Shown: positions 1 through 12,136 of the stretch, one piece after another
Layout of the letters: every line of letters starts with the position of its first letter
Numbering within the stretch: the stretch's first letter is position 1
From: a virus
Lineage: Duplodnaviria > Heunggongvirae > Uroviricota > Caudoviricetes
IMG/VR virus record: IMGVR_UViG_2711768053_000017
Span: 1 to 12,136 of that record
Reading direction: 5' to 3' (one strand)
DNA length: 12,136 bases
Notes under the pieces: generated by a model
Told to the model about the DNA's origin: nothing
The model's database searches: none
The model's input: the letters and a program-made list of their open reading frames with translations, nothing else
Program-made: the position numbers and the translations under genes

Positions 1-252
1 TTACCATATTTCGTCACCCGCAGGGGTGGATTTACCCCAGACATCCTGCTCGCTAAGTTCCGCGGCGTTCATGTCACACTGTGCCAGCAGTTCATCAAGC
101 GAGTAGCGCCTGGAGATGGGTGTCAGAATCAGTTGGTTGTTGCTCACCTGCGCTTCCACGCTCTGCCCCGGCTGTAAGTTAAGTTCTTTCATTACGATAT
201 TGGGAATGACCATACCTGCACTGTTCCCCCATCTTTTTATGGTAATACGCAT
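1..252 (-). CDS. chpS: MazE/ChpS-family antitoxin (AbrB/SpoVT-fold), 83 aa; toxin partner expected left of the window
   Basis: Translation MRITIKRWGNSAGMVIPNIVMKELNLQPGQ...YSLDELLAQCD...GDEIW matches my recollection of E. coli ChpS and carries the MazE-family KRWGNS motif. AAGGAGG Shine-Dalgarno lies about 6 nt upstream of the ATG at 252; the GTG at 258 in the ORF track sits directly on the SD and is unlikely to be the start. Stop codon is at 1-3. Confidence 0.7.
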   Translation of the reverse strand: MRITIKRWGNSAGMVIPNIVMKELNLQPGQSVEAQVSNNQLILTPISRRYSLDELLAQCDMNAAELSEQDVWGKSTPAGDEIW

Positions 253-266
253 CTGCACCTCCTTAA

Positions 267-283
267 GTTATACAAAGTATAAC
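267..283 (-). promoter_or_regulatory. Perfect 17-bp palindrome GTTATAC-AAA-GTATAAC overlapping a TATACT -10-like hexamer just upstream of the antitoxin RBS; candidate autoregulatory operator/promoter of the TA operon
   Basis: Inverted repeat with 7-bp arms seen directly in the sequence; on the minus strand it reads GTTATACTTTGTATAAC and is followed by TTAAGGAGG and the ATG. MazE-family antitoxins autoregulate through palindromes at their promoters. Confidence 0.35.
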
Positions 284-479
284 TCACGGTGCTACAGGAA
301 ACGTTTTACCCCTGCGCATTTGTGAACGCCAGCAGAGTTTTTTATGCGTTAACAGATATGGAAAGCGGCTCGGAGAGAAAAGCAAAGGGTGAGGGAATTA
401 CAAAACAGAATGCGAGTCGTCTCGCAAAAAACAACGCCACCCGAAGGTGACATGAAGGAGACCGAGCACACTGGCCTCC

Positions 480-542
480 CTTCGATATATCAATTAGTTA
501 CATTAATACACATAGTCTTAACTAGGCTTATTTAGTCCTATT
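480..542. other. Candidate attL / integration junction: AT-rich segment immediately downstream of the integrase stop codon
   Basis: In P2-type phages att lies directly beyond the 3' end of int. The segment is AT-rich, and 525-533 (GGCTTATTT) is the reverse complement of AAATAAGCC, which resembles part of the P2 att core as I remember it. That recollection is uncertain and no second copy (attR) is available in the window. Confidence 0.2.
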
Positions 543-1538
543 TTATGGGCAATATCTGGACAACTCAGCCACAGGATTAAAGCGCACAGCATCCTGCAGA
601 TAATCCGGTGCAAAATGGGCATAAGTCATCGTCTGCTGAATAGTGCTATGCCCAAGTATTCTCTGCAAAGTGATGATATTCCCGCCATTAATCATGAAGT
701 GAGTGGCAAAGGTATGCCGTAAAACATGTATCGACTGCCCTTCAGGAAGATCGGGCCTCACCTTTCTGATAGCCGTTCTGACAGCGGCATAACTCGGATA
801 AATTAAACGACCAGTAGCCTTAGTCTTAATCATGCACTCCAGTTCTGACGATATAGGTATAACGCGACGCTTCCCATTTTTTGTTTCCATAAAAATGACT
901 TTGCCGCTAATAACATGCTCCCCCTTGATATTTGCAACTTCACTCCATCTTCCACCTGTTGCCAGACACAACAAGACGGCTTTTAATTCATCACCAGATA
1001 ACAACTCCAGTAATCGTGGAATATCTTCATGATACAAATAAGCCATTTCAGGCTGTTTGATATTAAGTTTTTTCACATCATGAAACGGATTAACCCCAGA
1101 ATATTCCTCTGCGTCAATTAGTTTTGTGAAGAAACCACTCATCATTGCGCAATAACGATTAACCGTGGATTGTTTTATTCCGCGGTTAAGCAACAATAAC
1201 CGATAATTAATTATGTTCTTACGAGTAAGTTGGTCACTGCGTGTAACATTAATACTTTCAAGATCACTAATGACCGCAGAAATACGCACTCGCTCCATCG
1301 CACCGTAAGGATGGTTTTTCCCATGGTATAGCCACCAACAATCCAGCAACTCCCTCAGCGAGCGCCGTTCTGTTGGCTTATCAACCCAGTCTTTGTCGTG
1401 GTAATGCTGCAATACATGACGCTCATACAAAACAGCCTCACCACGAGTATCAAATCGCCGCCTGAATCTCTTTCCTTCTGATCCAGCAGGCCGCACGTCC
1501 ACACAAAATTTGCCATTAGCGAGCTTCTTAATCGACAT
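543..1538 (-). CDS. int: Tyrosine recombinase / phage integrase, P2-type, 331 aa
   Basis: Translation MSIKKLANGKFCVDVRPAGSEGKRFRRRF...LRHTFATHFMINGGNIITLQRILGHSTIQQTMTYAHFAPDYLQDA closely parallels P2 Int (arm-binding N-terminus, R...HxxR...Y catalytic signature). GGAGGG SD lies 7 nt upstream of the ATG at 1538; the longer ORF from 1574 lacks an SD. Confidence 0.9.
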   Translation of the reverse strand: MSIKKLANGKFCVDVRPAGSEGKRFRRRFDTRGEAVLYERHVLQHYHDKDWVDKPTERRSLRELLDCWWLYHGKNHPYGAMERVRISAVISDLESINVTRSDQLTRKNIINYRLLLLNRGIKQSTVNRYCAMMSGFFTKLIDAEEYSGVNPFHDVKKLNIKQPEMAYLYHEDIPRLLELLSGDELKAVLLCLATGGRWSEVANIKGEHVISGKVIFMETKNGKRRVIPISSELECMIKTKATGRLIYPSYAAVRTAIRKVRPDLPEGQSIHVLRHTFATHFMINGGNIITLQRILGHSTIQQTMTYAHFAPDYLQDAVRFNPVAELSRYCP

Positions 1539-1604
1539 AAGGAAGCCCTCCAATGAAAACATCATCTTGATCACAGCTCTGGGAAATAAATGCCTGGTGA
1601 ACCG

Positions 1605-1898
1605 TTAACCAGTTTTCTTGCCGGAGCGGGATGATTCCGCTTCGCCTTGCCCAATGTGTGCGAGAGCCGGTACAACCTGCCCGGCCTTGGGTTCAACTTC
1701 ATCAAACAGAAACCAGTCGCGGTATTTAGAAAATCTCGGGTGCTTGAAAAGCTTGATAGTGATCTCGAGGCCAGGAAGGTTACGACCATACTCATAACTG
1801 GTCAGAGCAGAATAAGAAATTCCAATCATATCAGCGAATTCCCGCTGAGTGAGATCTTCAGATTTGCGCATGACGCGAATTTTTTGAGGAATGTCCAT
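1605..1898 (-). CDS. C: Immunity repressor, P2 C-type (HTH), 97 aa
   Basis: Translation MDIPQKIRVMRKSEDLTQREFADMIGISYSALTSYEYGRN...PALAHIGQGEAESSRSGKKTG parallels P2 C (..LMRKSE..L....G..Y..LS.YE.GR...PALAHFGQNETTSPHSGQKTG). AGGAG SD lies 8 nt upstream of the ATG at 1898; it sits downstream of int on the same strand as in P2. The ORF-track start at 1970 is an unsupported N-terminal extension. Confidence 0.85.
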   Translation of the reverse strand: MDIPQKIRVMRKSEDLTQREFADMIGISYSALTSYEYGRNLPGLEITIKLFKHPRFSKYRDWFLFDEVEPKAGQVVPALAHIGQGEAESSRSGKKTG

Positions 1899-1940
1899 TT
1901 GACAAACTCCTACATATGTGTAGATTAACACCACATATGA
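1899..1940 (+). promoter_or_regulatory. Candidate early rightward promoter (Pe-like) with two direct-repeat operator half-sites flanking the -10
   Basis: Consensus -35 TTGACA (1899-1904), 16-nt spacer, -10 TAGATT (1921-1926). 8-bp direct repeats TACATATG (1911-1918) and CACATATG (1932-1939), 21 bp apart, flank the -10. That is the operator layout described for P2 C repressor, which binds two direct repeats flanking the Pe -10. Confidence 0.5.
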
Positions 1941-2012
1941 ACAGCAAACAAATGTTCTAAGTGGTTCCAACTAGTGCCAATTAGAAAGAGCACCAATGGC
2001 GGAGGATATCAG

Positions 2013-2438
2013 ATGCAAGAAAGCACTCAAAACGCGCCTGAGTCACTTTGCGGAACACGATGCGATCGCCTGTCAGAAATGCCAGAAGGGGAGCATCAAA
2101 AAACAGAACGCAAAGCACGTGAACGTGAAGAAATTCGACTTTCAGAAAATCCCTCGCATCTCCTGTCAAAAGAAGGATTTGCGCTGTATATCGGCAAAAC
2201 AGTTAGCGCCATTGTGAGCATGGCTAAAGCAGGGAAATTGCCAGCCGTGTATATGGCAGACCCTCTTAGGCCAGGAGGAAACGCTGAACTCTACATCAAC
2301 AGAAAAGCGTGGGATGAAGCATGTGATCGCTTGATCGAAAACGCTCCGCAGGAATGGCATGACTGGGAAAACCGCCTGTTTTTATTTAAGCCGACACATA
2401 GCGAACGAAGCAGAACTAAAAAAGCGAGGGCCGCATGA
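2013..2438 (+). CDS. cox: Cox-like excisionase / transcriptional switch protein, 141 aa (alternative start 2079 gives 119 aa)
   Basis: The stretch LLSKEGFALYIGKTVSAIVSMAKAGKLPAVYMADPLRPGGNAELYINRKAW parallels P2 Cox (..YQEFAKLIGKSTGAVRRMIDKGKLPVIDMTDP...GEYWVYLPAWN). GGAGG SD at 2001-2005 is 7 nt before the ATG at 2013. It is first in the rightward operon, divergent from C. Roughly 35-50 N-terminal residues exceed P2 Cox, so the true start is uncertain. Confidence 0.7.
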   Translation: MQESTQNAPESLCGTRCDRLSEMPEGEHQKTERKAREREEIRLSENPSHLLSKEGFALYIGKTVSAIVSMAKAGKLPAVYMADPLRPGGNAELYINRKAWDEACDRLIENAPQEWHDWENRLFLFKPTHSERSRTKKARAA

Positions 2439-2476
2439 TTGCTTTATTGTTAACACATTATTTTCGTCGCCGTTAT

Positions 2477-2506
2477 TTCAAACACGGGCAGTTAGTGGGC
2501 TATATC
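2477..2506 (+). promoter_or_regulatory. Weak candidate sigma70 promoter ahead of the AT-rich cassette
   Basis: TTCAAA (2477-2482), 18-nt spacer, TATATC (2501-2506), about 37 bp upstream of the ATG at 2543. Match to consensus is only moderate. Confidence 0.25.
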
Positions 2507-2542
2507 ACACTGCCTGAATGAGTTAAAAGAGGTAACAGTAGA

Positions 2543-3151
2543 ATGAATCACAAAAATAAAGCGCTACTGGAACGACTGGAAACCCTGAAAAACGAAAAAC
2601 CACACCAGAAGCTTTTGCTGGTTTTTCCGGGCAAACCACAGGTTGAAATCAGCATTGACTACCACGAATTACACAGAACGTTCGCTGACCTGATGGCATT
2701 TAAATCAAAGCTTCAGAATGGCGAAGATTTGAAAGATGCCACCCTGCATCCCGACGATGAATACGGCCATTTTTGTCGGGATAACGCAAAGGGAACGTTC
2801 GGATTGGTTTTAGAACCAGTATGCGGCGTCATGCTCAGGTTTCCTGCCGAAGAAGCATTTGAACTTTATCGACAGATTATGGATGACGAATCAATGCTCA
2901 TTAAAGAAACAGCAGACTGTACATGCGCTAACACTAAACCGTACATTTATGCTGGCTCATACACTGATGAAGAACTGATAAATTTTTTGGAAACCGTTGT
3001 AGCAGAATTGAAATGCCGCAACAGGTTACCACTAAGACAACAACAATTACGGCATGAGTTAGAGGCCTACCAGGCTGAAATAGATAGAAACAATGAGTTT
3101 CTTAATTCAGTCGTGTATCGGCAGGATAAAAATCCCAAGCAGAATCCTTAA
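2543..3151 (+). CDS. Hypothetical protein, 202 aa, in AT-rich accessory cassette
   Basis: Long ORF with AAAGAGGT SD about 9 nt upstream of the ATG; no family recognised by eye. Noticeably AT-richer than the flanking phage backbone. Confidence 0.6.
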   Translation: MNHKNKALLERLETLKNEKPHQKLLLVFPGKPQVEISIDYHELHRTFADLMAFKSKLQNGEDLKDATLHPDDEYGHFCRDNAKGTFGLVLEPVCGVMLRFPAEEAFELYRQIMDDESMLIKETADCTCANTKPYIYAGSYTDEELINFLETVVAELKCRNRLPLRQQQLRHELEAYQAEIDRNNEFLNSVVYRQDKNPKQNP

Positions 3152-3569
3152 AGTGCAACAGACTTTCATCTTCATAACTTAAATCAGGCATTGGAGATGA
3201 GAGCTCGTGCTTATAAAGAATCTGGATACGCTCGGATACATGCTCTGGTATTACATATGCATTAATATCATTCCAGAGAACAATAAGTATGTCATGGAGA
3301 CACATATTTTTGGCATCAGACAATGAAACACCCTTTTGGGTGAAAAGATAATGATAAAGCACATTTTTTCCGAAGAGGACTACACACTTGGAATCAATAT
3401 TTCTTCGATACTCGACAAGTAGCAAATCCAATTTAAGGAGAATTAATGCTCGAGTAGCAACAAATGCTGAGTTGGCTGTTTCTTTATCCAGCACATCACG
3501 ATAGGATTCAGCAACTCGCTCGCAGTGTTTTTCAAAAATTCGCAGACACACAAAAGCATCTAATTCCAT
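3102..3569 (-). CDS. Hypothetical protein, 155 aa, convergent with and overlapping the 3' end of the 2543-3151 gene by 50 bp
   Basis: AAGGAG SD 6 nt upstream of the ATG at 3569 (MELDAFVCLRIFEKHCERV...). The ORF-track extension to 3722 is a Cys-rich low-complexity stretch without an SD, so the shorter start is preferred. No recognisable motif. Confidence 0.6.
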   Translation of the reverse strand: MELDAFVCLRIFEKHCERVAESYRDVLDKETANSAFVATRALILLKLDLLLVEYRRNIDSKCVVLFGKNVLYHYLFTQKGVSLSDAKNMCLHDILIVLWNDINAYVIPEHVSERIQILYKHELSSPMPDLSYEDESLLHFKDSAWDFYPADTRLN

Positions 3570-3710
3570 AACAACTCCTTTGTGGTTGGTTAAACACGCG
3601 CCCTTTACAGCCCCTTCAAGACTGCGGGCGGTGGAAAAATACCACAAAACCATGCGCCGGGCATGGCTAAAACCCGGCACAAATTCGCAACAGCAGCAGG
3701 ATATTTTTGT

Positions 3711-4061
3711 ATGAAGCAACAACGAAATTCTTCACAGCAACGCTTCCGCAACGGGGCGGAACGCCACGCTAACCGTTTCGCCACCAGTGCATCACGCAGC
3801 AGCTCTCGCTACAGCCTGAGCGAAACACACGCCACACCTGATGGCCATCCCGTAAAACAAATTGGTGAACACACCTGGCTGATTGAGAAGGCTGGAATCG
3901 TGGTCCACAAATGCCCGCGCAATCCGTTCACCGGAAACCGCATTTTTGAACTGATCAGCGGCGACAATCACCTCGGGCAGGATTTCACATTGTACGAAGC
4001 ACTACGCACGGTTGATCGTCTGCTTCGCGGGCAAAATTTTATTAAACAGACTGATTTATAA
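3711..4061 (+). CDS. Hypothetical protein, about 116 aa (start uncertain; 3663 is the alternative)
   Basis: ORF with a plausible globular C-terminal half (…WLIEKAGIVVHKCPRNPFTGNRIFELISGDNHLGQDFTLYEALRTVDRLL…), but the N-terminal part is S/R-rich and neither candidate ATG has a convincing SD. Confidence 0.4.
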   Translation: MKQQRNSSQQRFRNGAERHANRFATSASRSSSRYSLSETHATPDGHPVKQIGEHTWLIEKAGIVVHKCPRNPFTGNRIFELISGDNHLGQDFTLYEALRTVDRLLRGQNFIKQTDL

Positions 4062-4071
4062 CAGGTGCTTT

Positions 4072-4350
4072 ATGACTAAAGACCATACTCAAGGTGTATT
4101 TATCCGCTTTATTGATTCTCGCGGTGAACTGTTATTGCGTGCATCAGCTATTAATGGTGTAGCCCAGACAAAAGACGCAACCACTCATATTTATTTGGAC
4201 AGCACCGCACAACTGATCGTGGAGCTTCCGTACCAGACTGTACGTGAAGTCATTAGCGAAGCTGAAAAGGCACGTCAGATTAATAGCGATGAACCATACA
4301 TCGAAATTATCTGCATGGATTCAAAAACAGAAATCCAGAAGACAGATTAA
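4072..4350 (+). CDS. Hypothetical small protein, 92 aa
   Basis: ATG at 4072 preceded by AGGTG with a short spacer; it starts 10 nt after the previous stop, consistent with an operon. No family recognised. Confidence 0.5.
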   Translation: MTKDHTQGVFIRFIDSRGELLLRASAINGVAQTKDATTHIYLDSTAQLIVELPYQTVREVISEAEKARQINSDEPYIEIICMDSKTEIQKTD

Positions 4351-4361
4351 AGGGCGTTGTG

Positions 4362-4604
4362 ATGGATAAAGAATATAAAACTCTCGTCAATAAAGCACTT
4401 GAGCGTTTTCATTTTCGCTTAAGCGCATCAGGCACTCATGCTGAGCTCGCAGCCCGAGAGTCATTGACCAGGGCCATCAAGAGTATATACGACACGGCTT
4501 TTTACATTGACGATCCGGACGCACTCGACGAGCTTTCCATACTCGTCTGCGCCGCAGAAAACGGGCATCACATTGAACCGTATAACCTGGGGAGTATCGC
4601 GTGA
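4362..4604 (+). CDS. Hypothetical small protein, 80 aa
   Basis: ATG at 4362 with AAGGG about 7 nt upstream; tightly spaced after the previous gene. No family recognised. Confidence 0.5.
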   Translation: MDKEYKTLVNKALERFHFRLSASGTHAELAARESLTRAIKSIYDTAFYIDDPDALDELSILVCAAENGHHIEPYNLGSIA

Positions 4605-4714
4605 GCATATTTATTTCATGGCTTGTTCTGATTATTTCGGTGGCCTGCGCCATTGGGATTATGCGAATTATTCATTCAGTAAAAAAGATTGAACGCTTTT
4701 TCACTGGTGAATAA
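4601..4714 (+). CDS. Small hydrophobic single-TM peptide, 37 aa, not in the ORF track (below its length cutoff)
   Basis: GTG start at 4601 overlaps the upstream stop (GTGA) and is preceded by GGGGAG 6 nt upstream. Translation (M)SIFISWLVLIISVACAIGIMRIIHSVKKIERFFTGE is one predicted transmembrane helix followed by a basic tail. Confidence 0.4.
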   Translation: MSIFISWLVLIISVACAIGIMRIIHSVKKIERFFTGE

Positions 4715-4807
4715 CAGCACAAATAAAACACCAGATTAAATAAGAAAACGTGAAAACCATCCGTATTAACGGAGGTATTCGCACACGCAAATAACGGAGA
4801 TACAAAA

Positions 4808-5218
4808 ATGCACGCAAAAGAAGAAGGTATCATCAGAGCACTGAAAGAAATTTCAAAGACAGAAAACGAAGTAGCGAAAAAAGCCATAGCAAATAATCAT
4901 ATGGACGTCGCAACCCACACACTGATAGTCGCAAGAGTTACGGCAGAAGCAGCCGAAATTATCGCAAAACAGGATGCTGAACTGGCGGTTCTCAGAACAC
5001 AACCAATCACCGGGCTGGATTTGTCTAACACCGGACGCCTTATTTACACAATTGGCTCGGAGCTACAGCGATACACCATTATCGCCGGATTACAGGATAA
5101 ATACCTGATCACTCCTCACCCCATAAGGGAATCAGAAATTCTGACAAATCTCCGCCTGATAGAGCGCTCTCAAGTCGCATTCATTGATGACGCACAGCGC
5201 ACCGCATTTAACGCATAG
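4808..5218 (+). CDS. Hypothetical protein, 136 aa
   Basis: ATG with ACGGAG SD about 8 nt upstream; clean ORF with ordinary composition; no family recognised. Confidence 0.55.
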   Translation: MHAKEEGIIRALKEISKTENEVAKKAIANNHMDVATHTLIVARVTAEAAEIIAKQDAELAVLRTQPITGLDLSNTGRLIYTIGSELQRYTIIAGLQDKYLITPHPIRESEILTNLRLIERSQVAFIDDAQRTAFNA

Positions 5219-5236
5219 GGTTACTGGACAAAAAAA

Positions 5237-5245
5237 GGGGGGGGG
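5237..5245. repeat. Homopolymeric G9 tract (preceded by A7) 2 nt upstream of the start codon of the 5248 operon
   Basis: Counted directly: A at 5230-5236, G at 5237-5245, then CA and the ATG at 5248. The tract doubles as the only purine-rich SD-like element for this start codon. Confidence 0.9.
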
Positions 5246-5247
5246 CA

Positions 5248-5451
5248 ATGGCAATTAAGCGTTTTTCCGTCATTCGTTTCGCATCCAGAGGGCGTGAATA
5301 CGAAGTTGACGAACGGCTGATTAAAACGCTCGACCGTCACCGTTCGCAACCTGACGCGCATCACATTTATCTCACTGACGACACTTACTTCTGCGCCACC
5401 AACGTGGTGCAGGTGAACCTTATCCGACACGTACAGGAGTCACGCAGATGA
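5248..5451 (+). CDS. Hypothetical small protein, 67 aa; first gene of a translationally coupled four-gene operon
   Basis: ATG directly after the G9 tract; its stop overlaps the next start (ATGA). No family recognised. Confidence 0.5.
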   Translation: MAIKRFSVIRFASRGREYEVDERLIKTLDRHRSQPDAHHIYLTDDTYFCATNVVQVNLIRHVQESRR

Positions 5452-5666
5452 ACAGAAGGAGAATTACACGCAGACATCGCCGTACACGCCTGAGCTCCCC
5501 GCCAACACTAAAGGGACTCATTCAAAGCGAGATCGGTGATTTCTTCGCTGGATTTGGATCACCTGGCGAACCAGAAACACCTGAAGCGATGCAGCGCGAA
5601 CTCATGATGCGCATCGATAACGTTTTTGACTTTTTCCTGAATAACAAAAGAGAGCAACCGACATGA
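5448..5666 (+). CDS. Hypothetical small protein, 72 aa, with a strongly basic N-terminus (MNRRRITRRHRRTR)
   Basis: ATGA overlap with both the upstream and the downstream gene supports real, coupled translation. Confidence 0.5.
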   Translation: MNRRRITRRHRRTRLSSPPTLKGLIQSEIGDFFAGFGSPGEPETPEAMQRELMMRIDNVFDFFLNNKREQPT

Positions 5667-5875
5667 ACGAAAAGACCTGGTTTCGCGCATACATGTGGGC
5701 GCTGGTATGCGTCCTCGTCTCTATCATTCTGTATGCAGGACTACTCCCCCGAATGATCTCATCAGACAGCTCCTTCCTGGTATTGCTGGGCATTTTTGTT
5801 GCCTTGCTGTACCCGGCGGGCGTTGTCCGCTTTTTCAGTAACTACATCAAAGCAATTATGGAAACCAAACAATGA
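5663..5875 (+). CDS. Small integral membrane protein, 70 aa, two predicted TM helices
   Basis: Hydrophobic segments AYMWALVCVLVSIILYAGLL and FLVLLGIFVALLYPAGVV; ATGA overlaps on both sides. It sits immediately upstream of the SPFH gene, like the NfeD-type membrane partners of SPFH proteins. Confidence 0.6.
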   Translation: MNEKTWFRAYMWALVCVLVSIILYAGLLPRMISSDSSFLVLLGIFVALLYPAGVVRFFSNYIKAIMETKQ

Positions 5876-6696
5876 AAAAACTATTACCACTCATCCCTCT
5901 CCTGATGACCACACTTCTGGTTGGCTGTGACCGCGTGGAGCCGGGCAATGTAGGCATCAAAGTCAACAAACTGGGCGACGATAAAGGCGTCGGTGAAGTG
6001 GTTGGCGTTGGTCGCTACTGGACAGGCTGGAATACCGAGGTTTACATCTTCCCGACCTTCAAACAAATGAAGACCTACGATGAGCCGTTCAGCTTTCAGA
6101 TGAGTGACGGCACAACCATCGGCTATCACATCGGTGTAGCCTACAAGGTTGATCCATCCAAAGTTACTACAGTGTTTCAGACCTACCGCAAAGGCGTGGA
6201 CGACATTACCGACACTGACCTGCGCCAGAAGATCGCCGATGCACTCAACCGACTGGCCAGCAAAATGACCACCGATAAGTTTATCGACGGTGGTAAGTCT
6301 GAACTGCTGGATTCAGCACTTAAAGACATTCAGGCAGAAATGACACCTATCGGCATTCAGGTAATGAGCCTCTCTTATGTCGGTAAACCGGAATACCCGC
6401 CAACCGTGATCGACAGCATTAATGCCAAAGTCACAGCGAACCAGAAAACCCTGCAACGCGAACAGGAAGTCAAGCAACGCGAAGCAGAAGCCAACATGCT
6501 GCGCGCAGAAGCTGCCGGACAGGCTGATGCCATTCGCACAAAAGCCCAGGCTGAAGCCGACGCCATTCGTTTACGCGGTGAAGCTCTGCGCCAGAATCCC
6601 GGCGTTATGGAGCTGGAAGCAATCAACAAATGGAACGGCACGCTGCCGCAATACATGACCAGCAATACCGCTGTTCCGTTTGTTCCGGTGAAGTAA
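5872..6696 (+). CDS. SPFH/band-7 (HflC/stomatin/prohibitin-like) lipoprotein, 274 aa, predicted inner-membrane anchored
   Basis: N-terminal signal peptide with lipobox LLVGC followed by Asp at +2 (inner-membrane retention signal). The C-terminal Ala/Glu-rich coiled-coil (LRAEAAGQADAIRTKAQAEADAIRLRGEALRQNP...LEAINKW) resembles the HflC/HflK C-terminal region. ATGA-coupled to the upstream membrane protein. Confidence 0.65.
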   Translation: MKKLLPLIPLLMTTLLVGCDRVEPGNVGIKVNKLGDDKGVGEVVGVGRYWTGWNTEVYIFPTFKQMKTYDEPFSFQMSDGTTIGYHIGVAYKVDPSKVTTVFQTYRKGVDDITDTDLRQKIADALNRLASKMTTDKFIDGGKSELLDSALKDIQAEMTPIGIQVMSLSYVGKPEYPPTVIDSINAKVTANQKTLQREQEVKQREAEANMLRAEAAGQADAIRTKAQAEADAIRLRGEALRQNPGVMELEAINKWNGTLPQYMTSNTAVPFVPVK

Positions 6697-6702
6697 TTAA
6701 AC

Positions 6703-6748
6703 CCGGCCAGCGAAAATCGCTGGCCGGAGCAGTATCAGGATTTTTTTT
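6703..6748 (+). terminator. Candidate rho-independent terminator after the SPFH operon
   Basis: Perfect 10-bp stem CCGGCCAGCG / CGCTGGCCGG with a 5-nt loop (6703-6727), starting 7 nt after the stop codon, followed by a T8 run at 6741-6748. The T-run is 13 nt from the stem, which is non-canonical. Confidence 0.4.
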
Positions 6749-6775
6749 AGTATGCCGTTCTCACAAAAAAACCGC

Positions 6776-6886
6776 TTGCCATGCCGCAATCAGTCAGGTT
6801 ACATTTCCGCTGCACCTCATAAAACGGGTGCCGGGATTTCCACCCCGCTGACAACCAAAGCGCACAACCGCGCCAGCGGTTTTTTT
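6776..6886 (+). promoter_or_regulatory. Candidate promoter plus hairpin/T7 element: possible short transcript (about 75 nt) or attenuator-type leader
   Basis: TTGCCA (6776-6781), 18-nt spacer, TACATT (6800-6805); downstream a stem CCGCTG (6845-6850) / CAGCGG (6874-6879) enclosing an inner GCGC-N6-GCGC hairpin, followed directly by T7 (6880-6886). Confidence 0.25.
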
Positions 6887-7065
6887 GTGCGTACCGTATC
6901 GCCACGTCTTTTTCGCACACGAATTATGGTGGGGCGTATGGGGCCGACTTCGGTCGGGCCGGGTTCTTTGGTTGCCGGTTGTGGAAACCCTGTACGTCTC
7001 ACCACCCCGAGTTTTCCACCTCTGGATGGTGAGTTTTCAAAACTTACAACCAAAGAGGCCACACC

Positions 7066-7296
7066 ATGGCAAACCGCAAACAGCACCGCGCTATCGCGGA
7101 GCGTCGTCACATCCAGACTGAAATCGACCGCAGACTCACCCGCGCTGCACACATCGCCTTTATCATGCAATCCAACACATTGCACAGACTCAACAGCACT
7201 ATTTCAGCCGACTACTGCGCCGCTGTATTCAGCTATCTGGCGGAAGACCTCCTGTCTCTTCAGGACCTTATCCAGCAGCAAAACAAACTCCATTAA
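7066..7296 (+). CDS. Hypothetical small protein, 76 aa, basic N-terminus (MANRKQHRAIAERRHIQTEIDRR)
   Basis: AAAGAGG SD 7 nt upstream of the ATG; the sequence reads as a genuine protein, unlike the overlapping 206-aa ORF at 6752-7372. Confidence 0.55.
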   Translation: MANRKQHRAIAERRHIQTEIDRRLTRAAHIAFIMQSNTLHRLNSTISADYCAAVFSYLAEDLLSLQDLIQQQNKLH

Positions 7297-7368
7297 TTCC
7301 TGTTCCGGGCCTTTCCTGCACCTTGCGGCGGGAGGCCTTCGCACATCTGTAACAAGAGGATTGCCGCA

Positions 7369-7734
7369 ATGATTCTCGCCAACGACTTTCTTGAATACCT
7401 GCTCAATACAGAGCGTGATCTTGCCGTTCGCGTGCGTGACCGTTATGACATGTACCTGAAATCCCTGCCTGTACCGCAGCTCGCTGACGGAAAGATTGTT
7501 ATTGATGGTCGCTACATGATCGACAGCCATGAGGGAAATTACAGGCTTTACCGCATTGAAGGTGGCACCCCGTCCGTTATTGGCATTTACCAGCGCCCAT
7601 CCTCTGCAATCGTCGATGTGATTGCCGACAGCATCCGCATCACACATCGCCATGCCGACACAGAAGACACCGTGCTGGAAATTCAGCGTCTGGCTGCCGT
7701 TTGCCGTGACACCCTGAACGGTATGACGAAGTAA
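7369..7734 (+). CDS. Hypothetical protein, 121 aa, immediately upstream of gene A
   Basis: AAGAGGA SD 8 nt upstream of the ATG; its stop is 6 nt before the gene A start. No family recognised. Confidence 0.6.
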   Translation: MILANDFLEYLLNTERDLAVRVRDRYDMYLKSLPVPQLADGKIVIDGRYMIDSHEGNYRLYRIEGGTPSVIGIYQRPSSAIVDVIADSIRITHRHADTEDTVLEIQRLAAVCRDTLNGMTK

Positions 7735-7740
7735 ATCAGT

Positions 7741-10563
7741 ATGACGACAGAGTACATCAGGGACTGGCAACAACCACGCCACGCAGTAGGGCGTGAAGGT
7801 ACGGGGATCCCCGCACCTGAATCCGCGCTTTCCTCCTGGCTGGATGCCTACCGGGTAGAGAACGAGCGCCGCCAGGAAATGGCTGATGCGGCGTTCTCCG
7901 CCACGCCGCTGGGCAACCTGATTAATAAAAGCCTGGACGCACAGGAAAAACAGGACAAAACCATCACACTGGCAGGAGACGCCAGAAAACAGGCACGCGG
8001 CGCGCTGGATGAAGCCATGGCCTCGCTGCGCCTGCTGCCGTCCTATCTGCGCGATCCGCTTATTCGCCACCTCTCCTTCCTGCGCAAAAAACAGGAAGCC
8101 GATCGCCGGAAAGGCAAAAAGAGCTGGCAGGCGGAACGCTATGCACGCGGAACCCTGCGCAAAATATTCGAACGTCTGGATCGCACTGACGGACGCTGGC
8201 TGACACCGGGTTATCGCTCCCTTGCCGGACGCGAACGCCTGGACGATTTGCTGTACCTGCCGCAGCTCAACAAACACCAGATACAGACACTGGCCACCAT
8301 GACGGCGGCAATGTTCAGCAGCACCTTCGAGACACTCTGCGATGGCTTTGGCGCGACCGATGGTGAGCTGACCATGGAAGTGGCGCTGAAGACGTATCAG
8401 ATGCTGGCCCGAATGGCGTTACACCTGCACGCCATTCCGCCACATTATGACGCACTGACAACAGATAAAGACCGGAGGAACGAACCGGACACGGAGCTGC
8501 TGCCGGGCGCAATCCTTCGCCTGACCTGTGCGGAATGGTGGAAACGCAAACTGTGGCTGTTACGTTGCGAGTGGAGAGAAGAACAACTCCGCGCCGCCTG
8601 TCTGGTTTCCAGAAAAACATCACCCTATCTGAGCCAGGACGCGTTAAGCGAGTTTCGCGCACAGCGCGAGAAAACACGCGATTTTCTGAAAAGTTTCATG
8701 CTGGAAAACGAAGACGGGTTCACGATTGATCTCGAGACAGTGTATTACGCGGGAGTAAGTAACCCGGTTCACCGTAAGGCAGAAATGATGGCCACCATGA
8801 AGGGGCTGGAACTTCTGGCCGAAGCCCGTGGCGACAAAGCGGTGTTTCTGACTGTCACTACCCCTTCGAAGTACCACGCAACAACGGAGAACGGTCATCC
8901 GAACCCCAAATGGAACGGGGCCACCATGCGCGATTCCAGCGATTACCTGGTTAACACGTTTTTTAAGGCGGTCCGCAAAAAACTGAACCGCGACGGCCTG
9001 CGCTGGTATGGCATTCGCACGGTGGAGCCTCACCATGACGGCACCGTGCACTGGCACATGATGGTCTTTGCACATCCTGAAGAAATCGACAGCATCGTGG
9101 ACATCACCCGTGATATTGCCATTCGCGAAGACCGCCACGAGCTGGGCGATGACATAACTCCGCGTTTTAAGGCAGAGTACGTCGACGGTTCGAAAGGTAC
9201 GCCGACCAGCTACATCGCCACCTACATCGGAAAGAACCTGGACAGCCGCGCCGTGGATGGCATTGACCCGAAAACAGGCAAACCGCGCATCGACGACGAA
9301 TCAGGAAAGACGATGGCAGAAAGCGTGGAACGCGCCATCGGCTGGGCGCGCCTTCACCGGGTCCGCCAGTTCCAGTTCTTTGGCATCCCCTCCCGTCAGG
9401 TGTGGCGTGAACTGCGCCGCCTTGCCTGTCAGATGGCACGTAACCCACAGGGACCGCAACGTCTGGAAAATGACGCAATGGATGCGGTTCTTGCTGCCGC
9501 TGATGCCGGATGTTTTGCCACCTACATAGAGAAACAGGGCGGCGTGCTTGTTCCACGCAAAGACTACCTGATTCGCACCGCCTACGACCTCGCAGATGAG
9601 CTGAACGATTACGGCGAACAGAGCGTACAGATTTACGGGATCTGGTCACCACTCATCGGGGAATCCTCCCGTGTGTGCACGCATCCGGATAACTGGAAGC
9701 TGGTAAGACGCAAACCGGAAGCGGAAGACAGCGCCCGCGAAAATGGTTTTGACCTTCAGGGCGGCCCTGCCGCCCCTTGGACTCGTGGCAATAACTGTCC
9801 CCGTGTACAGGAAACGGACAACAACGGGACAGAACAGCCGGAAGAACGGCCAGCACCGTGGCCGCAGCTTCCTGACGGCGTTGATGTGGATGAATGGATG
9901 CGCTCACTGAAACGGCACGAACGCCGGGCGCTGATGCGTTCGCTTCGTGACAAACAGGCAAAAAACATCAGTGATGAAATGCAGAACTGGACACAGAGCC
10001 GCAAACAGCCACAGCCTTTGCCTGATAACCACGAGTTACTCGCTAAAGAATGGCGGGAGTCTGCTGAATCTCTCGGCCTGCATATCGGTGAACAGCAGAT
10101 GCAGCACCTGTTACGGGGCGGCAGTCTGTACGTTGACGGCAGCATCATTGCACCGCAGGGATTTGAAATTGTACGCAAACCGGATACCCGCCCGGACAGC
10201 CGAATCACGCAGCTCTGGCAACGCCTGAGCCGTAACCACGGCGTAAGCAGCACGGAGATCCGCCATAACCCGGTCGCCAGCTATCTGGAACAACTAGGGG
10301 CATCAGACCCCGAAGCCGCCGCACGCCTGGCATCCACACTTCAGCAGGACCAGAACACCATGAAAACCCCCGTTACCGTGCTTTCTGACATGCTGCGCGC
10401 CATCCGCGACGCAGAGCACGCACAGAGAATCAGTGAAACCACTGAACGCGCCCACCGCAAAGCAGACCTGCTGCGGGGTAGCCTGACCAGTGGAAACAAA
10501 AAACAGACAGAAACGGGATTCACAAATCCCGTAAATGAGCAAAAAACGTGCCATAAAACATGA
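7741..10563 (+). CDS. A: Rolling-circle replication initiator, P2 gpA family (HUH endonuclease), 940 aa
   Basis: HUH motif VEPHHDGTVHWHMMVF (H-W-H at 9049-9057) and twin catalytic tyrosines YIATYIGKN (Y codons at 9211 and 9223), as in P2 gpA (VEPHHDGTPHWHMM, YIAKYISKN). The start at 7741 has a weak SD and may be coupled to the upstream gene. Confidence 0.9.
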   Translation: MTTEYIRDWQQPRHAVGREGTGIPAPESALSSWLDAYRVENERRQEMADAAFSATPLGNLINKSLDAQEKQDKTITLAGDARKQARGALDEAMASLRLLPSYLRDPLIRHLSFLRKKQEADRRKGKKSWQAERYARGTLRKIFERLDRTDGRWLTPGYRSLAGRERLDDLLYLPQLNKHQIQTLATMTAAMFSSTFETLCDGFGATDGELTMEVALKTYQMLARMALHLHAIPPHYDALTTDKDRRNEPDTELLPGAILRLTCAEWWKRKLWLLRCEWREEQLRAACLVSRKTSPYLSQDALSEFRAQREKTRDFLKSFMLENEDGFTIDLETVYYAGVSNPVHRKAEMMATMKGLELLAEARGDKAVFLTVTTPSKYHATTENGHPNPKWNGATMRDSSDYLVNTFFKAVRKKLNRDGLRWYGIRTVEPHHDGTVHWHMMVFAHPEEIDSIVDITRDIAIREDRHELGDDITPRFKAEYVDGSKGTPTSYIATYIGKNLDSRAVDGIDPKTGKPRIDDESGKTMAESVERAIGWARLHRVRQFQFFGIPSRQVWRELRRLACQMARNPQGPQRLENDAMDAVLAAADAGCFATYIEKQGGVLVPRKDYLIRTAYDLADELNDYGEQSVQIYGIWSPLIGESSRVCTHPDNWKLVRRKPEAEDSARENGFDLQGGPAAPWTRGNNCPRVQETDNNGTEQPEERPAPWPQLPDGVDVDEWMRSLKRHERRALMRSLRDKQAKNISDEMQNWTQSRKQPQPLPDNHELLAKEWRESAESLGLHIGEQQMQHLLRGGSLYVDGSIIAPQGFEIVRKPDTRPDSRITQLWQRLSRNHGVSSTEIRHNPVASYLEQLGASDPEAAARLASTLQQDQNTMKTPVTVLSDMLRAIRDAEHAQRISETTERAHRKADLLRGSLTSGNKKQTETGFTNPVNEQKTCHKT
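10513..10532. promoter_or_regulatory. 20-bp palindrome ACGGGATT-CACA-AATCCCGT, copy 1, inside the last codons of gene A
   Basis: Perfect 8-bp inverted arms seen directly in the sequence; an identical-arm second copy lies 73 bp downstream. Confidence 0.5.
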
Positions 10564-10585
10564 AGTGCGCGCAAAACAGGCAAAA

Positions 10586-10605
10586 ACGGGATTTCAGAAT
10601 CCCGT
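10586..10605. promoter_or_regulatory. 20-bp palindrome ACGGGATT-TCAG-AATCCCGT, copy 2, 35 bp upstream of the parM-like start; candidate ParR operator / centromere-like site
   Basis: Identical 8-bp arms to copy 1 and similar flanks (aaACGGGATT....AATCCCGTaaa). Spacing of 73 bp is about 7 helical turns. A TAATTA -10-like hexamer (10613-10618) follows. Confidence 0.5.
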
Positions 10606-10639
10606 AAACGATTAATTAATCAACATAAGGAAAAGCGAC

Positions 10640-11599
10640 ATGAAAATTTGTATCGACGACGGCTCCACCAACATAAAGCTGGCATGGACTGAGAACGGCA
10701 AACGCCGCAACGCCATCAGCCCGAACAGCTTCAAGTCGGAATGGTCTGCGCCGTTCGGTGGCACGCAGCCCGCGAACTACATGCTTGATGGCGTGCGCTA
10801 TGGTTTTGATCCGGTCAGCGATCGCTTTGTCCAGACGACCGACACGCAATACCAGTACAGCGATGTGAATGTCATTGCCATTCATCATGCGCTGGTCAAA
10901 TCAGGCATCACGCCACAGGAGGTGGATGTGGTTGTCACCCTGCCACTGAGCGAGTATTTCGACACAAACGCACAGCCGGACATGGCCAACATCAACCGCA
11001 AAAAAGCGAACGTTATGCGCCCGGTGGAGTACCAGAACGGCGAGGCATTCACTATCCGTAACGTGCGGGTTATGCCTGAATCCATTCCGGCTGGCTTTAA
11101 AGCACTGGCTGACATGAGTCCGTTTGAATCCCTGCTGATTGTGGATTTGGGCGGAACCACGCTGGATGTGGCAAAGGTTCAGGGGCAACTGGCAGGTATC
11201 AGCCAGGTGTTTTGCGATCCACACGTAGGCGTTTCTCTGATGGCTGATGCCGTGCTGTCGGTGATGGCCACTAACGGTATGCGTACCAGTCACCACATCG
11301 CCAATACCATTATTGAGCACCGTCACGATGAAGCCTGGCTACGCCAGCACATTCACAATGACGCGCATTACAACAGCCTGATGGCGGTTATTCGTGAAAA
11401 GGAGGAGACACTGAAACAACGCGTGATCCGCGCGCTGGCGGGTTTTTCGGGTTACGGGCGGGTGATGGTTGTAGGTGGAGGAGCGGAGATTGTGGCACCC
11501 GCTATCCGCGAAGCCTGCGGAGTTAATGCGACTTTCATCGCGGACGGGGTGCCACAGTTTGCTCTGGTTAATGGGCTGTACGCAATGGATAAGGAGTAA
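10640..11599 (+). CDS. parM: ParM/StbA-family actin-like ATPase, 319 aa
   Basis: N-terminus MKICIDDGSTNIKLAW matches the ParM signature (R1 ParM MLVFIDDGSTNIKLQW). Further shared blocks: SPNSFK, YSDVNV..HHAL, TLPLSEYFD, NRKKAN, VMPESIPAGF, LLIVDLGGTTLDV, GVSL, VGGGAE, LVNGLY. Length matches ParM (about 320 aa). AAGGAAAAG SD upstream. Confidence 0.85.
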   Translation: MKICIDDGSTNIKLAWTENGKRRNAISPNSFKSEWSAPFGGTQPANYMLDGVRYGFDPVSDRFVQTTDTQYQYSDVNVIAIHHALVKSGITPQEVDVVVTLPLSEYFDTNAQPDMANINRKKANVMRPVEYQNGEAFTIRNVRVMPESIPAGFKALADMSPFESLLIVDLGGTTLDVAKVQGQLAGISQVFCDPHVGVSLMADAVLSVMATNGMRTSHHIANTIIEHRHDEAWLRQHIHNDAHYNSLMAVIREKEETLKQRVIRALAGFSGYGRVMVVGGGAEIVAPAIREACGVNATFIADGVPQFALVNGLYAMDKE

Positions 11600-11603
11600 A
11601 TCA

Positions 11604-11918
11604 ATGACGACACCAACCAGACGAATAAGTTTCTATCTGAAGCCCGCCGTCGTCAAGAGCGAACGGGAGGCGTGCAGTTACCTCGACAGCCTGCCAGCCT
11701 CCGAACGCAGCCGCGCACAACGCGCGGCTTTTCTGGCTGGACTGGCTCTTATAAAACGCGCCCCCGCGTTGGCGTATTCGCTGGCAGAATGGTCAGAAGA
11801 CGAAATACGAATGCCACCGCCACCAGTACAGCCTGAAAAACCGGCGCAACCAGCAGCAGACAGCGCCCCCCATATGCAGCAGGTGAAAAAGAATATTCAG
11901 GCGTTTTTCCCGAAGTGA
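11604..11918 (+). CDS. parR: ParR/StbB-like small DNA-binding protein (likely ribbon-helix-helix), 104 aa
   Basis: RRISFYLKPAVVKSEREACSYLDSLPASERSRAQRAAFLAGLALIKRAP parallels the R1 ParR N-terminus as recalled (RRTIAFKLNPDVNQTDKIVCDTLDSIPQGERSRLNRAALTAGLALYRQDP). AAGGAG SD 7 nt upstream, 4 nt after the parM stop. The ORF-track extension from 11475 overlaps parM in another frame and is rejected. Confidence 0.65.
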   Translation: MTTPTRRISFYLKPAVVKSEREACSYLDSLPASERSRAQRAAFLAGLALIKRAPALAYSLAEWSEDEIRMPPPPVQPEKPAQPAADSAPHMQQVKKNIQAFFPK

Positions 11919-11932
11919 AAACAGGAGTAACT

Positions 11933-12136
11933 ATGTCCACCATTACCAAAGAATGGTTACAACGTAAAATCACAGAGTTTAAATCGTGGCGCGAAGACAT
12001 CCCGTTCGGTCTTGATGAAGACGATCACAATATGTTAATCGCACTGGAAATTGCACTTGCATCACTGGAAGCAGAGCCAGTGGCATGGATGCACGCAAAT
12101 AATCCTATTGGAATACCGGCGATAACAAGAAGTAAA
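11933..12136 (+). CDS. Hypothetical protein, 5' part only (68 codons, runs off the window)
   Basis: CAGGAG SD 5 nt upstream of the ATG at 11933; open reading frame MSTITKEWLQRKITEFKSWREDIPFGLDEDDHNMLIALEIALASLEAEPVAWMHANNPIG continues to the window end. No confident family assignment. Confidence 0.45.
   Translation, partial: MSTITKEWLQRKITEFKSWREDIPFGLDEDDHNMLIALEIALASLEAEPVAWMHANNPIGIPAITRSK

Follow-up and report, generated by a model that had tools for sequence, protein, structure and literature searches.

A candidate P4/P1-type RNA immunity module in the early region of a P88-like prophage

The IsrK and C4 RNAs have been equated with the seqA and CI RNAs of P4, and similar systems have been recognized in P1, P7, and N15 (PMC3632133). 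Here, an IsrK-type and a C4-type RNA are described in DNA of a tailed virus (IMG/VR record IMGVR_UViG_2711768053_000017, positions 1–12,136; this whole stretch of 12,136 nucleotides is called the window), where they lie, together with a candidate promoter, between positions 6697 and 7065, directly before an open reading frame (ORF) encoding a homologue of P4 epsilon. The module probably serves as an RNA immunity cassette of the P4/P1 type within the early operon of a P88-like prophage, blocking expression of the predicted anti-repressor in the lysogen. Both RNAs belong to curated families and are arranged as in the P4, P1, N15, and Gifsy-1 immunity systems, with no new mechanism involved; the presence of such a module inside helper-type P2-like prophages is apparently previously undescribed, and literature searches found no paper describing it in P2-like phages.

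In phages P1 and P7, after whose c4 the Rfam family C4 is named, c4 is an antisense RNA processed from the leader of the operon under its control. Its a′ and b′ sequences have both upstream (a1 b1) and downstream (a2 b2) targets, the latter located at the first gene's ribosome-binding site, and the system has an anti-repressor as its output; the immI locus, as reportedly described by Citron and Schuster in 1990 (as cited in PMC8201110), has the order c4 antisense RNA, icd, ant.

In P4, the eta frame begins 5′ of the constitutive promoter and extends across seqA and CI. Ribosomes use it only when the transcript comes from an upstream promoter, and by preventing termination its translation results in read-through (PMC10111431). 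For Gifsy-1, the promoter PisrK has been demonstrated experimentally, mutations in b′ relieve repression of the anti-repressor, and IsrK provided in trans raises its expression more than 100-fold (Hershko-Shalev et al., 2016; PMC4825925). Hfq binding, and partial read-through of the IsrK terminator with formation of a long isoform, are known for Gifsy-1 IsrK only (PMC4825925), and the P4 counterpart of IsrK governs the downstream operon (PMC10111431). N15 carries an immA anti-immunity operon (Ravin et al., 1999, as cited in PMC4488713).

Two RNA families and their complementary sites

Repeated Rfam scans with curated thresholds gave full-length plus-strand matches to two families: an IsrK/seqA-type small RNA at 6812–6886 (RF01394, model positions 1–77 of 77; 64.3 bits against a cut-off of 50, E 3.6e-12) and a C4/CI-type antisense RNA at 6922–7009 (RF01695, clan CL00128, model positions 1–87 of 87; 80.5 bits against a cut-off of 45, E 6.8e-15). 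The initial annotation of this region had listed four elements, namely an upstream hairpin with a T-run, a promoter-like sequence, a nested hairpin followed by seven Ts, and a hairpin with a UUCG tetraloop; all four are present where it had placed them, with Rfam E-values and fold z-scores exceeding chance. Its suggestion of a short RNA running from about 6810 to the T7 tract, and/or a point of regulated read-through, fits an IsrK-type small RNA well, but the C4 regulator was overlooked apart from its UUCG hairpin, as was the three-way complementarity (a1b1, a′b′, a2b2) that defines the mechanism.

The isrK match is laid out as hairpin 1 (6812–6831), hairpin 2 with the b1 sequence in its loop, a single-stranded a1 sequence, and an intrinsic terminator, called by a terminator scan, with its stem at 6866–6881 and T7 at 6880–6886. 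The nested hairpin and T7 of the initial annotation (6845–6886) are the minimum-free-energy fold of the 3′ half of this match and contain the terminator stem. Relative to shuffled sequences the isrK fold has a z-score of −2.4, and compensatory changes among loci were found in hairpin 1.

The C4 match consists of a 17-bp outer stem (6927–6943 with 6988–7004), an internal hairpin 1 (6944–6957), whose UUCG loop makes it the C(UUCG)G hairpin noticed earlier, and a hairpin 2 (6958–6979) that carries a′ in its loop; the family-typical 3′ ...CACCACCC tail is also seen. The fold has an energy of −43.2 kcal/mol (z −3.4), and the minimum-free-energy fold of the window sequence is the same as the consensus. 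The RNAalifold consensus of 18 sequences is the Rfam structure, with 13 of its 27 pairs changed on both sides and none broken. The length of C4 differs by 2, 3, and 4 nt among families.

Both RNAs carry, or are flanked by, short sequences with the complementarity expected of a c4-type system. In IsrK these are b1 (UUUCCAC, 6837–6843), complementary to b′, and a1 (CAACCAAAG, 6852–6860), complementary to a′; in C4 they are a′ (UCUUUGGUUG, 6965–6974) and b′ (GUGGAAA, 6981–6987), the latter in the single-stranded junction after hairpin 2; and downstream they are b2 (UUUCCAC, 7013–7019), 4 nt past the C4 3′ end, and a2 (CAACCAAAGA, 7047–7056), which overlaps the Shine-Dalgarno sequence AAGAGG (7053–7058) of the ORF starting at 7066. 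In the window, a′ pairs with a2 over 10 nt and b′ with b2 over 7 nt, and three copies of the 9-mer CAACCAAAG are found in the 12-kb window, all inside the module, against 0.18 expected. The functional equivalents of P1-type a1 and b1 sit inside the isrK match; the P1-type c4-a1b1 model (RF03163) gave no match in 6690–7120 even at E ≤ 1, and does match Gifsy-1.

Comparison of 21 loci—20 phage loci sharing the region and an Escherichia albertii locus—showed that these pairings are maintained while the sequences change. At every locus isrK is followed by C4 on the same strand, at a distance of 21–35 nt among the phage loci and 107 nt in P4, and the order of promoter, isrK, C4, and first gene is constant, including in P4 (CI, seqA), N15, and Gifsy-1 (IsrK/STnc1160). 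The b′ sequence is complementary over 7 of 7 positions to b1 and b2 across the 21 loci, with at least 10 different heptamers, b1 being located at a fixed place (isrK nt 26–32) in 20 of them; a′ matches a2 over 6–10 nt. Complementary runs average 7.0–8.7 nt within a locus and 4.0–4.5 nt across loci, and duplexes are predicted at −21 to −23 kcal/mol when both partners come from one locus, compared with −9 to −20 kcal/mol for foreign pairs. The 13 P88-type loci, among them six E. coli chromosomes and E. albertii, carry six a-types and five b-types, variously combined and each a perfect three-way match, and in every one of these loci a2 ends on the Shine-Dalgarno sequence of the epsilon-like gene. 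Between the window and P88, a1, a′, and a2 change together (CCAAAG vs CTACAG), and between the window and Shae_phiSM, b1, b′, and b2 do so; the P88 type departs from that of the window in a alone, the Shae_phiSM type in b alone. Such a pattern would be expected of sequences that determine specificity in an antisense immunity system, and the a and b sequences would be those that set immunity specificity and differ among related phages.

Some of these specificities recur in other elements. The b′ of lambdoid phages Stx2a_1447 and ST64B is UUUCCAC, the reverse complement of the window b′ and identical to the window b1 and b2, and the P88-type copy in E. coli strain 7784 has the same b′ (UUGAGAA) as N15. 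Judged from these sequences, cross-talk among co-resident elements is conceivable.

A further conserved pairing lies just 3′ of C4, where UGGUGAG (7027–7033), followed by UUUUC (segment 7027–7038, plus strand), is complementary to CUCACCA (6998–7004) in the 3′ strand of the C4 outer stem. Its counterpart gives a match of 6–11 nt in 18 of the 21 loci, and in the remaining three, of the 569R5 type, a perfect match of 4 nt lengthened by G-U pairs; the segment co-varies with the C4 stem in N15 (GGUGGUAGC) and P4 (GGCGAUAGC). In the fold of 6990–7075, an alternative hairpin was seen that has b2 in the loop and is followed by U-rich sequence, and this modeled structure may belong to a termination or processing logic.

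Upstream of isrK, the candidate module promoter (plus strand, 6776–6805) consists of the −35 hexamer TTGCCA, an 18-nt spacer, and the −10 hexamer TACATT. The initial annotation was right about its presence; taken alone, the element is at chance level, scoring 9 of 12 in a region where 1.3 such matches are expected by chance. The best sigma-70-like pair, however, ends exactly 6 nt 5′ of isrK nt 1 in 20 of the 21 loci, including P4, where this is the position of PLE, and Gifsy-1. Because of this fixed distance, the weak window promoter is credible, and it corresponds by position to P4 PLE and Gifsy-1 PisrK. An A7 tract (6765–6771) directly 5′ of the −35 hexamer is kept in all P88-type relatives and may be an UP-element-like feature.

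The remaining element of the initial annotation, described as a 10-bp hairpin followed by T8, lies on the plus strand at the end of the SPFH cassette (6703–6748). It is present as a GC-rich hairpin (6703–6727; −23.7 kcal/mol, z −5.4) with a stem of 11 rather than 10 bp, and the terminator scan called the element on the minus strand only; since T8 (6741–6748) starts 13 nt past the stem, it is not a canonical plus-strand intrinsic terminator. It was also rejected as a part of the RNA module, because sequence shared with other P88-type phages begins only near 6762 and the stem is too distant from the T-run.

The epsilon-like gene and the overlapping long frame

The first gene behind the module (7066–7296, plus strand) encodes a protein of 76 amino acids with 29% identity to P4 epsilon across 66 residues (BLASTP, E 2e-8). 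P4 epsilon matches the PHROG of the window protein (phrog_3688, E 7.6e-9), and the window protein matches that of P4 epsilon (phrog_10016, E 0.0018). Close relatives in the same position match Pfam PF25738 (Derepression protein), to which P4 epsilon belongs, with 29.5–32.7 bits (cut-off 27), and many copies are called "derepression protein" by PGAP. All four substitutions relative to Shae_phiSM are synonymous in the 7066–7296 frame. The sequence comparisons point to a P4 epsilon homologue, which is predicted to be an anti-repressor and the first gene under the control of the module, and not a replication gene, a point that the initial annotation had missed. A scan of genome contigs with the 76-amino-acid protein added only one further locus, that of E. 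albertii.

Both RNAs and the epsilon-like gene are overlapped on the plus strand by a 206-codon "Ash"/eta-like ORF (6752–7372), which spans isrK and C4 and then passes out of frame through the epsilon-like gene (7066 mod 3 = 1; 6752 mod 3 = 2), with its TGA overlapping the ATG of the ORF at 7369 (ATGA); between the two genes, 7297–7368 is covered by this long frame alone. The initial annotation took it for the only six-frame ORF of the region; others are found at 6630–6851 and 6885–7121 on the plus strand and at 6747–6920 and 6817–7185 on the minus strand. Its ATG is located 24 nt 5′ of the −35 hexamer in the window (21–24 nt when relatives are included), flanked by the T8 and A7 tracts. Two internal AUGs (6926 and 6938; C4 nt 5–7 and 17–19), corresponding to the orf45-type starts of Gifsy-1, are in the same frame.

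Evidence on the coding status of this frame differs between its parts. Within 6764–7063, codon-position bias is lacking, with substitutions distributed as [12,13,12] over the three positions and 21 of 100 residues altered at 88% nucleotide identity, and the earlier impression that the ORF is non-coding seems right at the protein level for this RNA part. The frame itself, by contrast, appears to be maintained: it is open from the ATG to the ATGA overlap in the window and in 11 of 11 relatives checked, and one 3-nt insertion among them leaves it intact. It contains no stops through 10 distinct epsilon variants, whereas the third frame contains one to five; computed given each epsilon protein and the window codon usage, the probability of no stop is 0.007 for the window variant, 0.05–0.09 for most others, and 0.335 for that of locus L027. 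At four loci the frame through the RNAs ends after 14–45 codons. By analogy, the long ORF is probably a P4 eta-like "ribosome transit" frame.

Several protein annotations coincide with the RNA genes. Pfam Phage_ASH (PF10554) matches residues 17–108 of the long ORF (6800–7076, the RNA region) with 28.8 bits against a cut-off of 26, and Phage_ASH as well as PHROGs 995, 6928, 821, and 3960, labeled "transcriptional regulator/repressor", coincide with translated isrK and C4 genes; such matches extend over 6800–7076 in the window, 8168–8584 in P4 (locus L007), and 1600–1890 in locus L005. These families look like artefacts of translating conserved RNA, and so do the old P4 "cI protein" coding sequence and N15 gene 32. 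A minus-strand "hypothetical protein" in the P88 record (5033–5221, equivalent to about 6817–7005 of the window) is antisense to both RNAs; the minus-strand ORF at 6817–7185, which has no family match and is likewise antisense to both, was treated as spurious. In three lambdoid loci (Stx2a_1447, L008, 1146–2297; ST64B, L009, 1147–2304; L017, 1141–2289), the isrK/C4 frame is continuous with the anti-repressor gene, and its start overlaps the preceding gene, as in the nested eta/kil-type arrangement of P4.

Set beside the P4 locus, where the minus strand matches the C4 model at 8420–8507 (CI) and the isrK model at 8615–8692 (seqA), the window has the same promoter distance, sites of a/b-type complementarity on both sides of the antisense RNA, a long ORF that starts 5′ of the internal promoter, runs through the RNAs, and also matches Phage_ASH, and, downstream, an epsilon homologue followed by a replication gene. 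It differs in the spacer between isrK and C4 (35 nt vs 107 nt), in the replication gene, which is a P2-type gpA nickase and not an alpha primase(-helicase), and in its carrier, a helper-type P2-like phage and not a satellite. Furthermore, the first translated gene after CI in P4 is kil, nested in frame in eta, with epsilon about 250 nt further on, whereas in the window the epsilon-like gene comes directly after C4, in a frame other than that of the long ORF, unlike the kil-type nesting.

Gifsy-1 likewise has IsrK, a C4 match, and then an anti-repressor gene. When its transcript is numbered from the Rfam start, every position given by Hershko-Shalev et al. is reproduced, and in the compensatory mutants G28A/C162U and G31A/C159U (PMC4825925), G28 and G31 fall in b1, and C162 and C159 in b′; since the mutated bases map to b1 and b′, the compensatory experiment on "helix b-I" directly tests the pairing of b1 with b′. 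The window retains the orf45 AUGs, and in both systems the stop of the ORF overlaps the ATG of the next gene. However, orf45 of Gifsy-1 comprises 45 codons and couples to the anti-repressor gene anrP, while the window frame, with 206 codons (148 counted from AUG 6926), passes the anti-repressor gene out of frame and is coupled instead to the ORF preceding gene A. AnrP of Gifsy-1 (Rha/Bro-type) and the P4 epsilon-type protein of the window belong to unrelated anti-repressor families, and there is no AntQ or IsrJ in the window.

With P1 and P7, compared by description in the case of P1, the window shares the processed-antisense layout, the a′/b′ targets on both sides, and the anti-repressor output, but its upstream targets are embedded in an IsrK-type terminated small RNA, RF03163 is unmatched, and there is no icd homologue. 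In N15, the isrK and C4 matches lie directly 5′ of the antA/icd/antB operon; the downstream genes are other than those of the window, and the element is a linear plasmid prophage.

Proposed regulation and its alternatives

From the observed RNA identities and folds, promoter position, three-way complementarity with its covariation, homology to epsilon, and maintenance of the open frame, a scheme of regulation may be inferred, in which the processing of C4, translational block as opposed to termination, the direction of the IsrK effect, and translation of the long ORF are the conditional steps. Transcription from the promoter at 6776–6805 would start at about 6812, and most transcripts would end at T7, yielding an IsrK/seqA-type RNA of about 75 nt. 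Read-through transcripts would carry the C4/CI-type RNA, to be excised as a stable antisense RNA, whose a′ and b′ would pair with a2 and b2 of the same mRNA and cover the ribosome-binding site of the epsilon-like gene; the anti-repressor would therefore be left untranslated in the lysogen, and by polarity the 7369 ORF and gene A would receive little transcription from the internal promoter. The a′ and b′ sequences would also pair with a1 and b1 of IsrK, which is therefore proposed to compete for or modulate C4. Transcripts from the early promoter (about 1899–1926), by contrast, could be translated from the start of the 206-codon ORF, 5′ of the internal promoter, with ribosomes crossing the terminator and the C4 region and making early transcripts immune to the RNA block, as with P4 eta, and the ATGA overlap would hand these ribosomes on to the 7369 ORF and gene A.

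Several points weigh against this scheme. The promoter is only a weak consensus match, as many as observed being expected by chance; the window epsilon-like protein itself scores 22.1 bits with PF25738, below the cut-off of 27; and, as regards translation of the long ORF, its first part lacks codon-position bias, no Shine-Dalgarno sequence is recognizable 5′ of ATG 6752, and this ATG lies 55 nt and a strong hairpin past the SPFH stop. In Gifsy-1, moreover, mutation of b1 in cis raised downstream translation and did not lower it (PMC4825925), so that IsrK is not a simple decoy, and the direction of its effect in the window is suggested with corresponding caution. Finally, control may be by a translational block (P1), by Rho-dependent termination (P4), or by both. 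Pure control of the P4 type, in which the C4/CI-like RNA acts on seqA-/seqC-like sites and causes premature (Rho-dependent) termination, mainly silencing gene A and the 7369 ORF in the prophage and providing superinfection immunity, with the epsilon-like gene incidental, is considered unlikely as the full account. The same Rfam models match the P4 CI and seqA regions, the gene order parallels that of the P4 left operon (promoter, seqA, CI, seqC, epsilon, small ORFs, replication gene), termination is the mechanism summarized for P4 (PMC10111431), and the co-varying alternative hairpin just 3′ of C4, whose loop holds b2 and whose tail is U-rich, is conserved. That hairpin, however, is long-looped with a weak U-tail and was not called by the terminator scan, gene A can be reached from the early promoter too, and a2 lies exactly on the epsilon-like Shine-Dalgarno sequence in every P88-type locus, as translational control predicts. 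The termination reading overlaps with the preferred one, that of a translational block with polarity.

The >100-fold stimulation of translation by IsrK in trans in Gifsy-1 raises a different prospect, namely that short IsrK opens an orf45-type start (AUG 6926 or 6938) on the read-through transcript, and that this translation is coupled via the 7369 ATGA to the 121-amino-acid ORF and gene A, making the module a replication inducer and not a silencer of an anti-repressor. Both orf45 AUGs are present, in a frame that is kept open and ends in ATGA on the 7369 ORF, as orf45 does on anrP; but AUG 6926 has no preceding Shine-Dalgarno sequence, the AUGs are within the 5′ strand of the 17-bp stem, 148 codons would be needed, out of frame, through the epsilon-like gene, and the position of a2 over the epsilon Shine-Dalgarno sequence in all loci would be left unexplained, so that such activation is held to be distinctly improbable. 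Still less credence is given to an ordinary protein gene ("Ash family protein" or "transcriptional regulator") with incidental RNA matches, even with the ORF above the Phage_ASH cut-off and matching PHROGs named transcriptional regulator or repressor, a frame conserved as open, and coding sequences annotated here by PGAP and in several phage records. Substitutions in 6764–7063 are flat over codon positions, the variation obeys base-pairing rules, C4 length varies by 2, 3, and 4 nt and the frame is closed early in four loci, PGAP flags many of these coding sequences as incomplete pseudogenes, and the P4 immunity factor has been described as an RNA (PMC3632133; PMC10111431). A simple cis-acting leader or attenuator, metering transcription from the SPFH operon to the replication genes with no trans-acting RNA, could invoke the intrinsic terminator (6866–6886) between the early promoter and gene A, yet it would leave unexplained the promoter's conserved distance to isrK, the three-way co-varying complementarity, and the family membership with experimentally trans-acting RNAs, and it is hardly to be credited at all.

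Beyond the immunity cassette, a more far-reaching but doubtful reading is that of a three-layer overlapping code, with two RNA genes and an out-of-frame anti-repressor gene inside a 206-codon stay-open frame, combined with an a/b heteroimmunity network across prophages. The frame may be under selection only to stay open, and ribosomes of the early operon could overcome both the IsrK terminator and the C4 block, with coupling onward into the replication genes. The a/b specificities (at least 6 × 5 in the P88 lineage, some common to N15 and lambdoid prophages) could form a cross-talk network, which could link helper-type prophages, P4-like satellites, and lambdoid prophages in one cell.

Prophage setting, distribution, and annotation

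The window covers the early part of a P88-like (Xuanwuvirus, P2-like) prophage; its closest phage is Escherichia phage P88 (Xuanwuvirus, Peduoviridae), with 92% identity across 6600–7400. An integrase gene (543–1574, minus strand) and cox (1974–2438) adjoin a helix-turn-helix repressor gene of the C type; the early-promoter candidate (1899–1926), graded good, precedes cox, and small accessory genes occupy the region between cox and the SPFH/Band-7 gene (5872–6696). Behind the epsilon-like gene follow the plus-strand ORF for 121 amino acids (7369–7734, phrog_3237) and gene A (7741–10563), which encodes a P2-type gpA (Pfam PF05840, E 2e-129). The 121-amino-acid product showed no similarity to P4 orf151 or orf106, NCBIfam gave zero matches for the products of 76, 121, and 206 amino acids, and ARAGORN found zero tRNA or tmRNA genes in the window.

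The RNA module is absent from the early regions of P2 and 186; phage 186 uses the LexA-controlled Tum instead, and its record mentions that gene A is translationally coupled in a similar way. SOS control of the module in the window was rejected, with no LexA-box-like site near its promoter; six CTGT-N8-ACAG-like sites lie elsewhere in the window, a count not above chance, and a perfect CTGT-N8-ACAG core is found within gene A (9795–9810).

P88-type phages other than P88 align to the window only from about 6762 onward, and therefore the conserved module is considered to start just 5′ of the promoter-like site, with the SPFH gene and its hairpin forming a separate cassette. The SPFH/Band-7 gene and the strong hairpin (5872–6748) are common to P88 only; at the same spot the other P88-type phages have different small genes (Ead/Ea22-like, or for a DNA-binding protein). 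From this comparison, the segment 5872–6748 appears to be an accessory cassette that can be exchanged, inserted immediately ahead of the eta-like ORF.

Of 5,426 complete E. coli genomes, 1,146 (about 21%) carry a copy covering at least 80% of the module, O157:H7, O104:H4, and ST131 strains among them; the E. coli copies total 1,342. In RefSeq E. coli genomes, the region is annotated as "ash family protein", often as an incomplete pseudogene, and elsewhere as "transcriptional regulator" or not at all; one GenBank phage record annotates both RNAs. Correct annotation would remove spurious protein families. The module is of interest in that it would control a homologue of epsilon, the protein by which satellite P4 derepresses P2, and the P88-type loci offer a compact natural set of a/b variants for the study of paired-RNA immunity, prophage induction, and helper-satellite cross-talk.

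A few further features were noted in the window and at related loci. Gene A encodes 940 amino acids, compared with 761 for P2 A; the Phage_GPA domain spans residues 179–503 only, and about 440 C-terminal residues are without family assignment. At locus L014, of phage TL-2011c, the Rfam model sRNA-Xcc1 matches positions 2523–2606 with 79.6 bits, about 130 nt 3′ of a Rha-family gene. Directly after gene A, this integrase-carrying P2-like prophage has a complete gene for a ParM-type actin-like segregation protein (10640–11599; StbA_N, E 4e-82; ParM_N, E 1e-68), which the P88 record names "recombinase".

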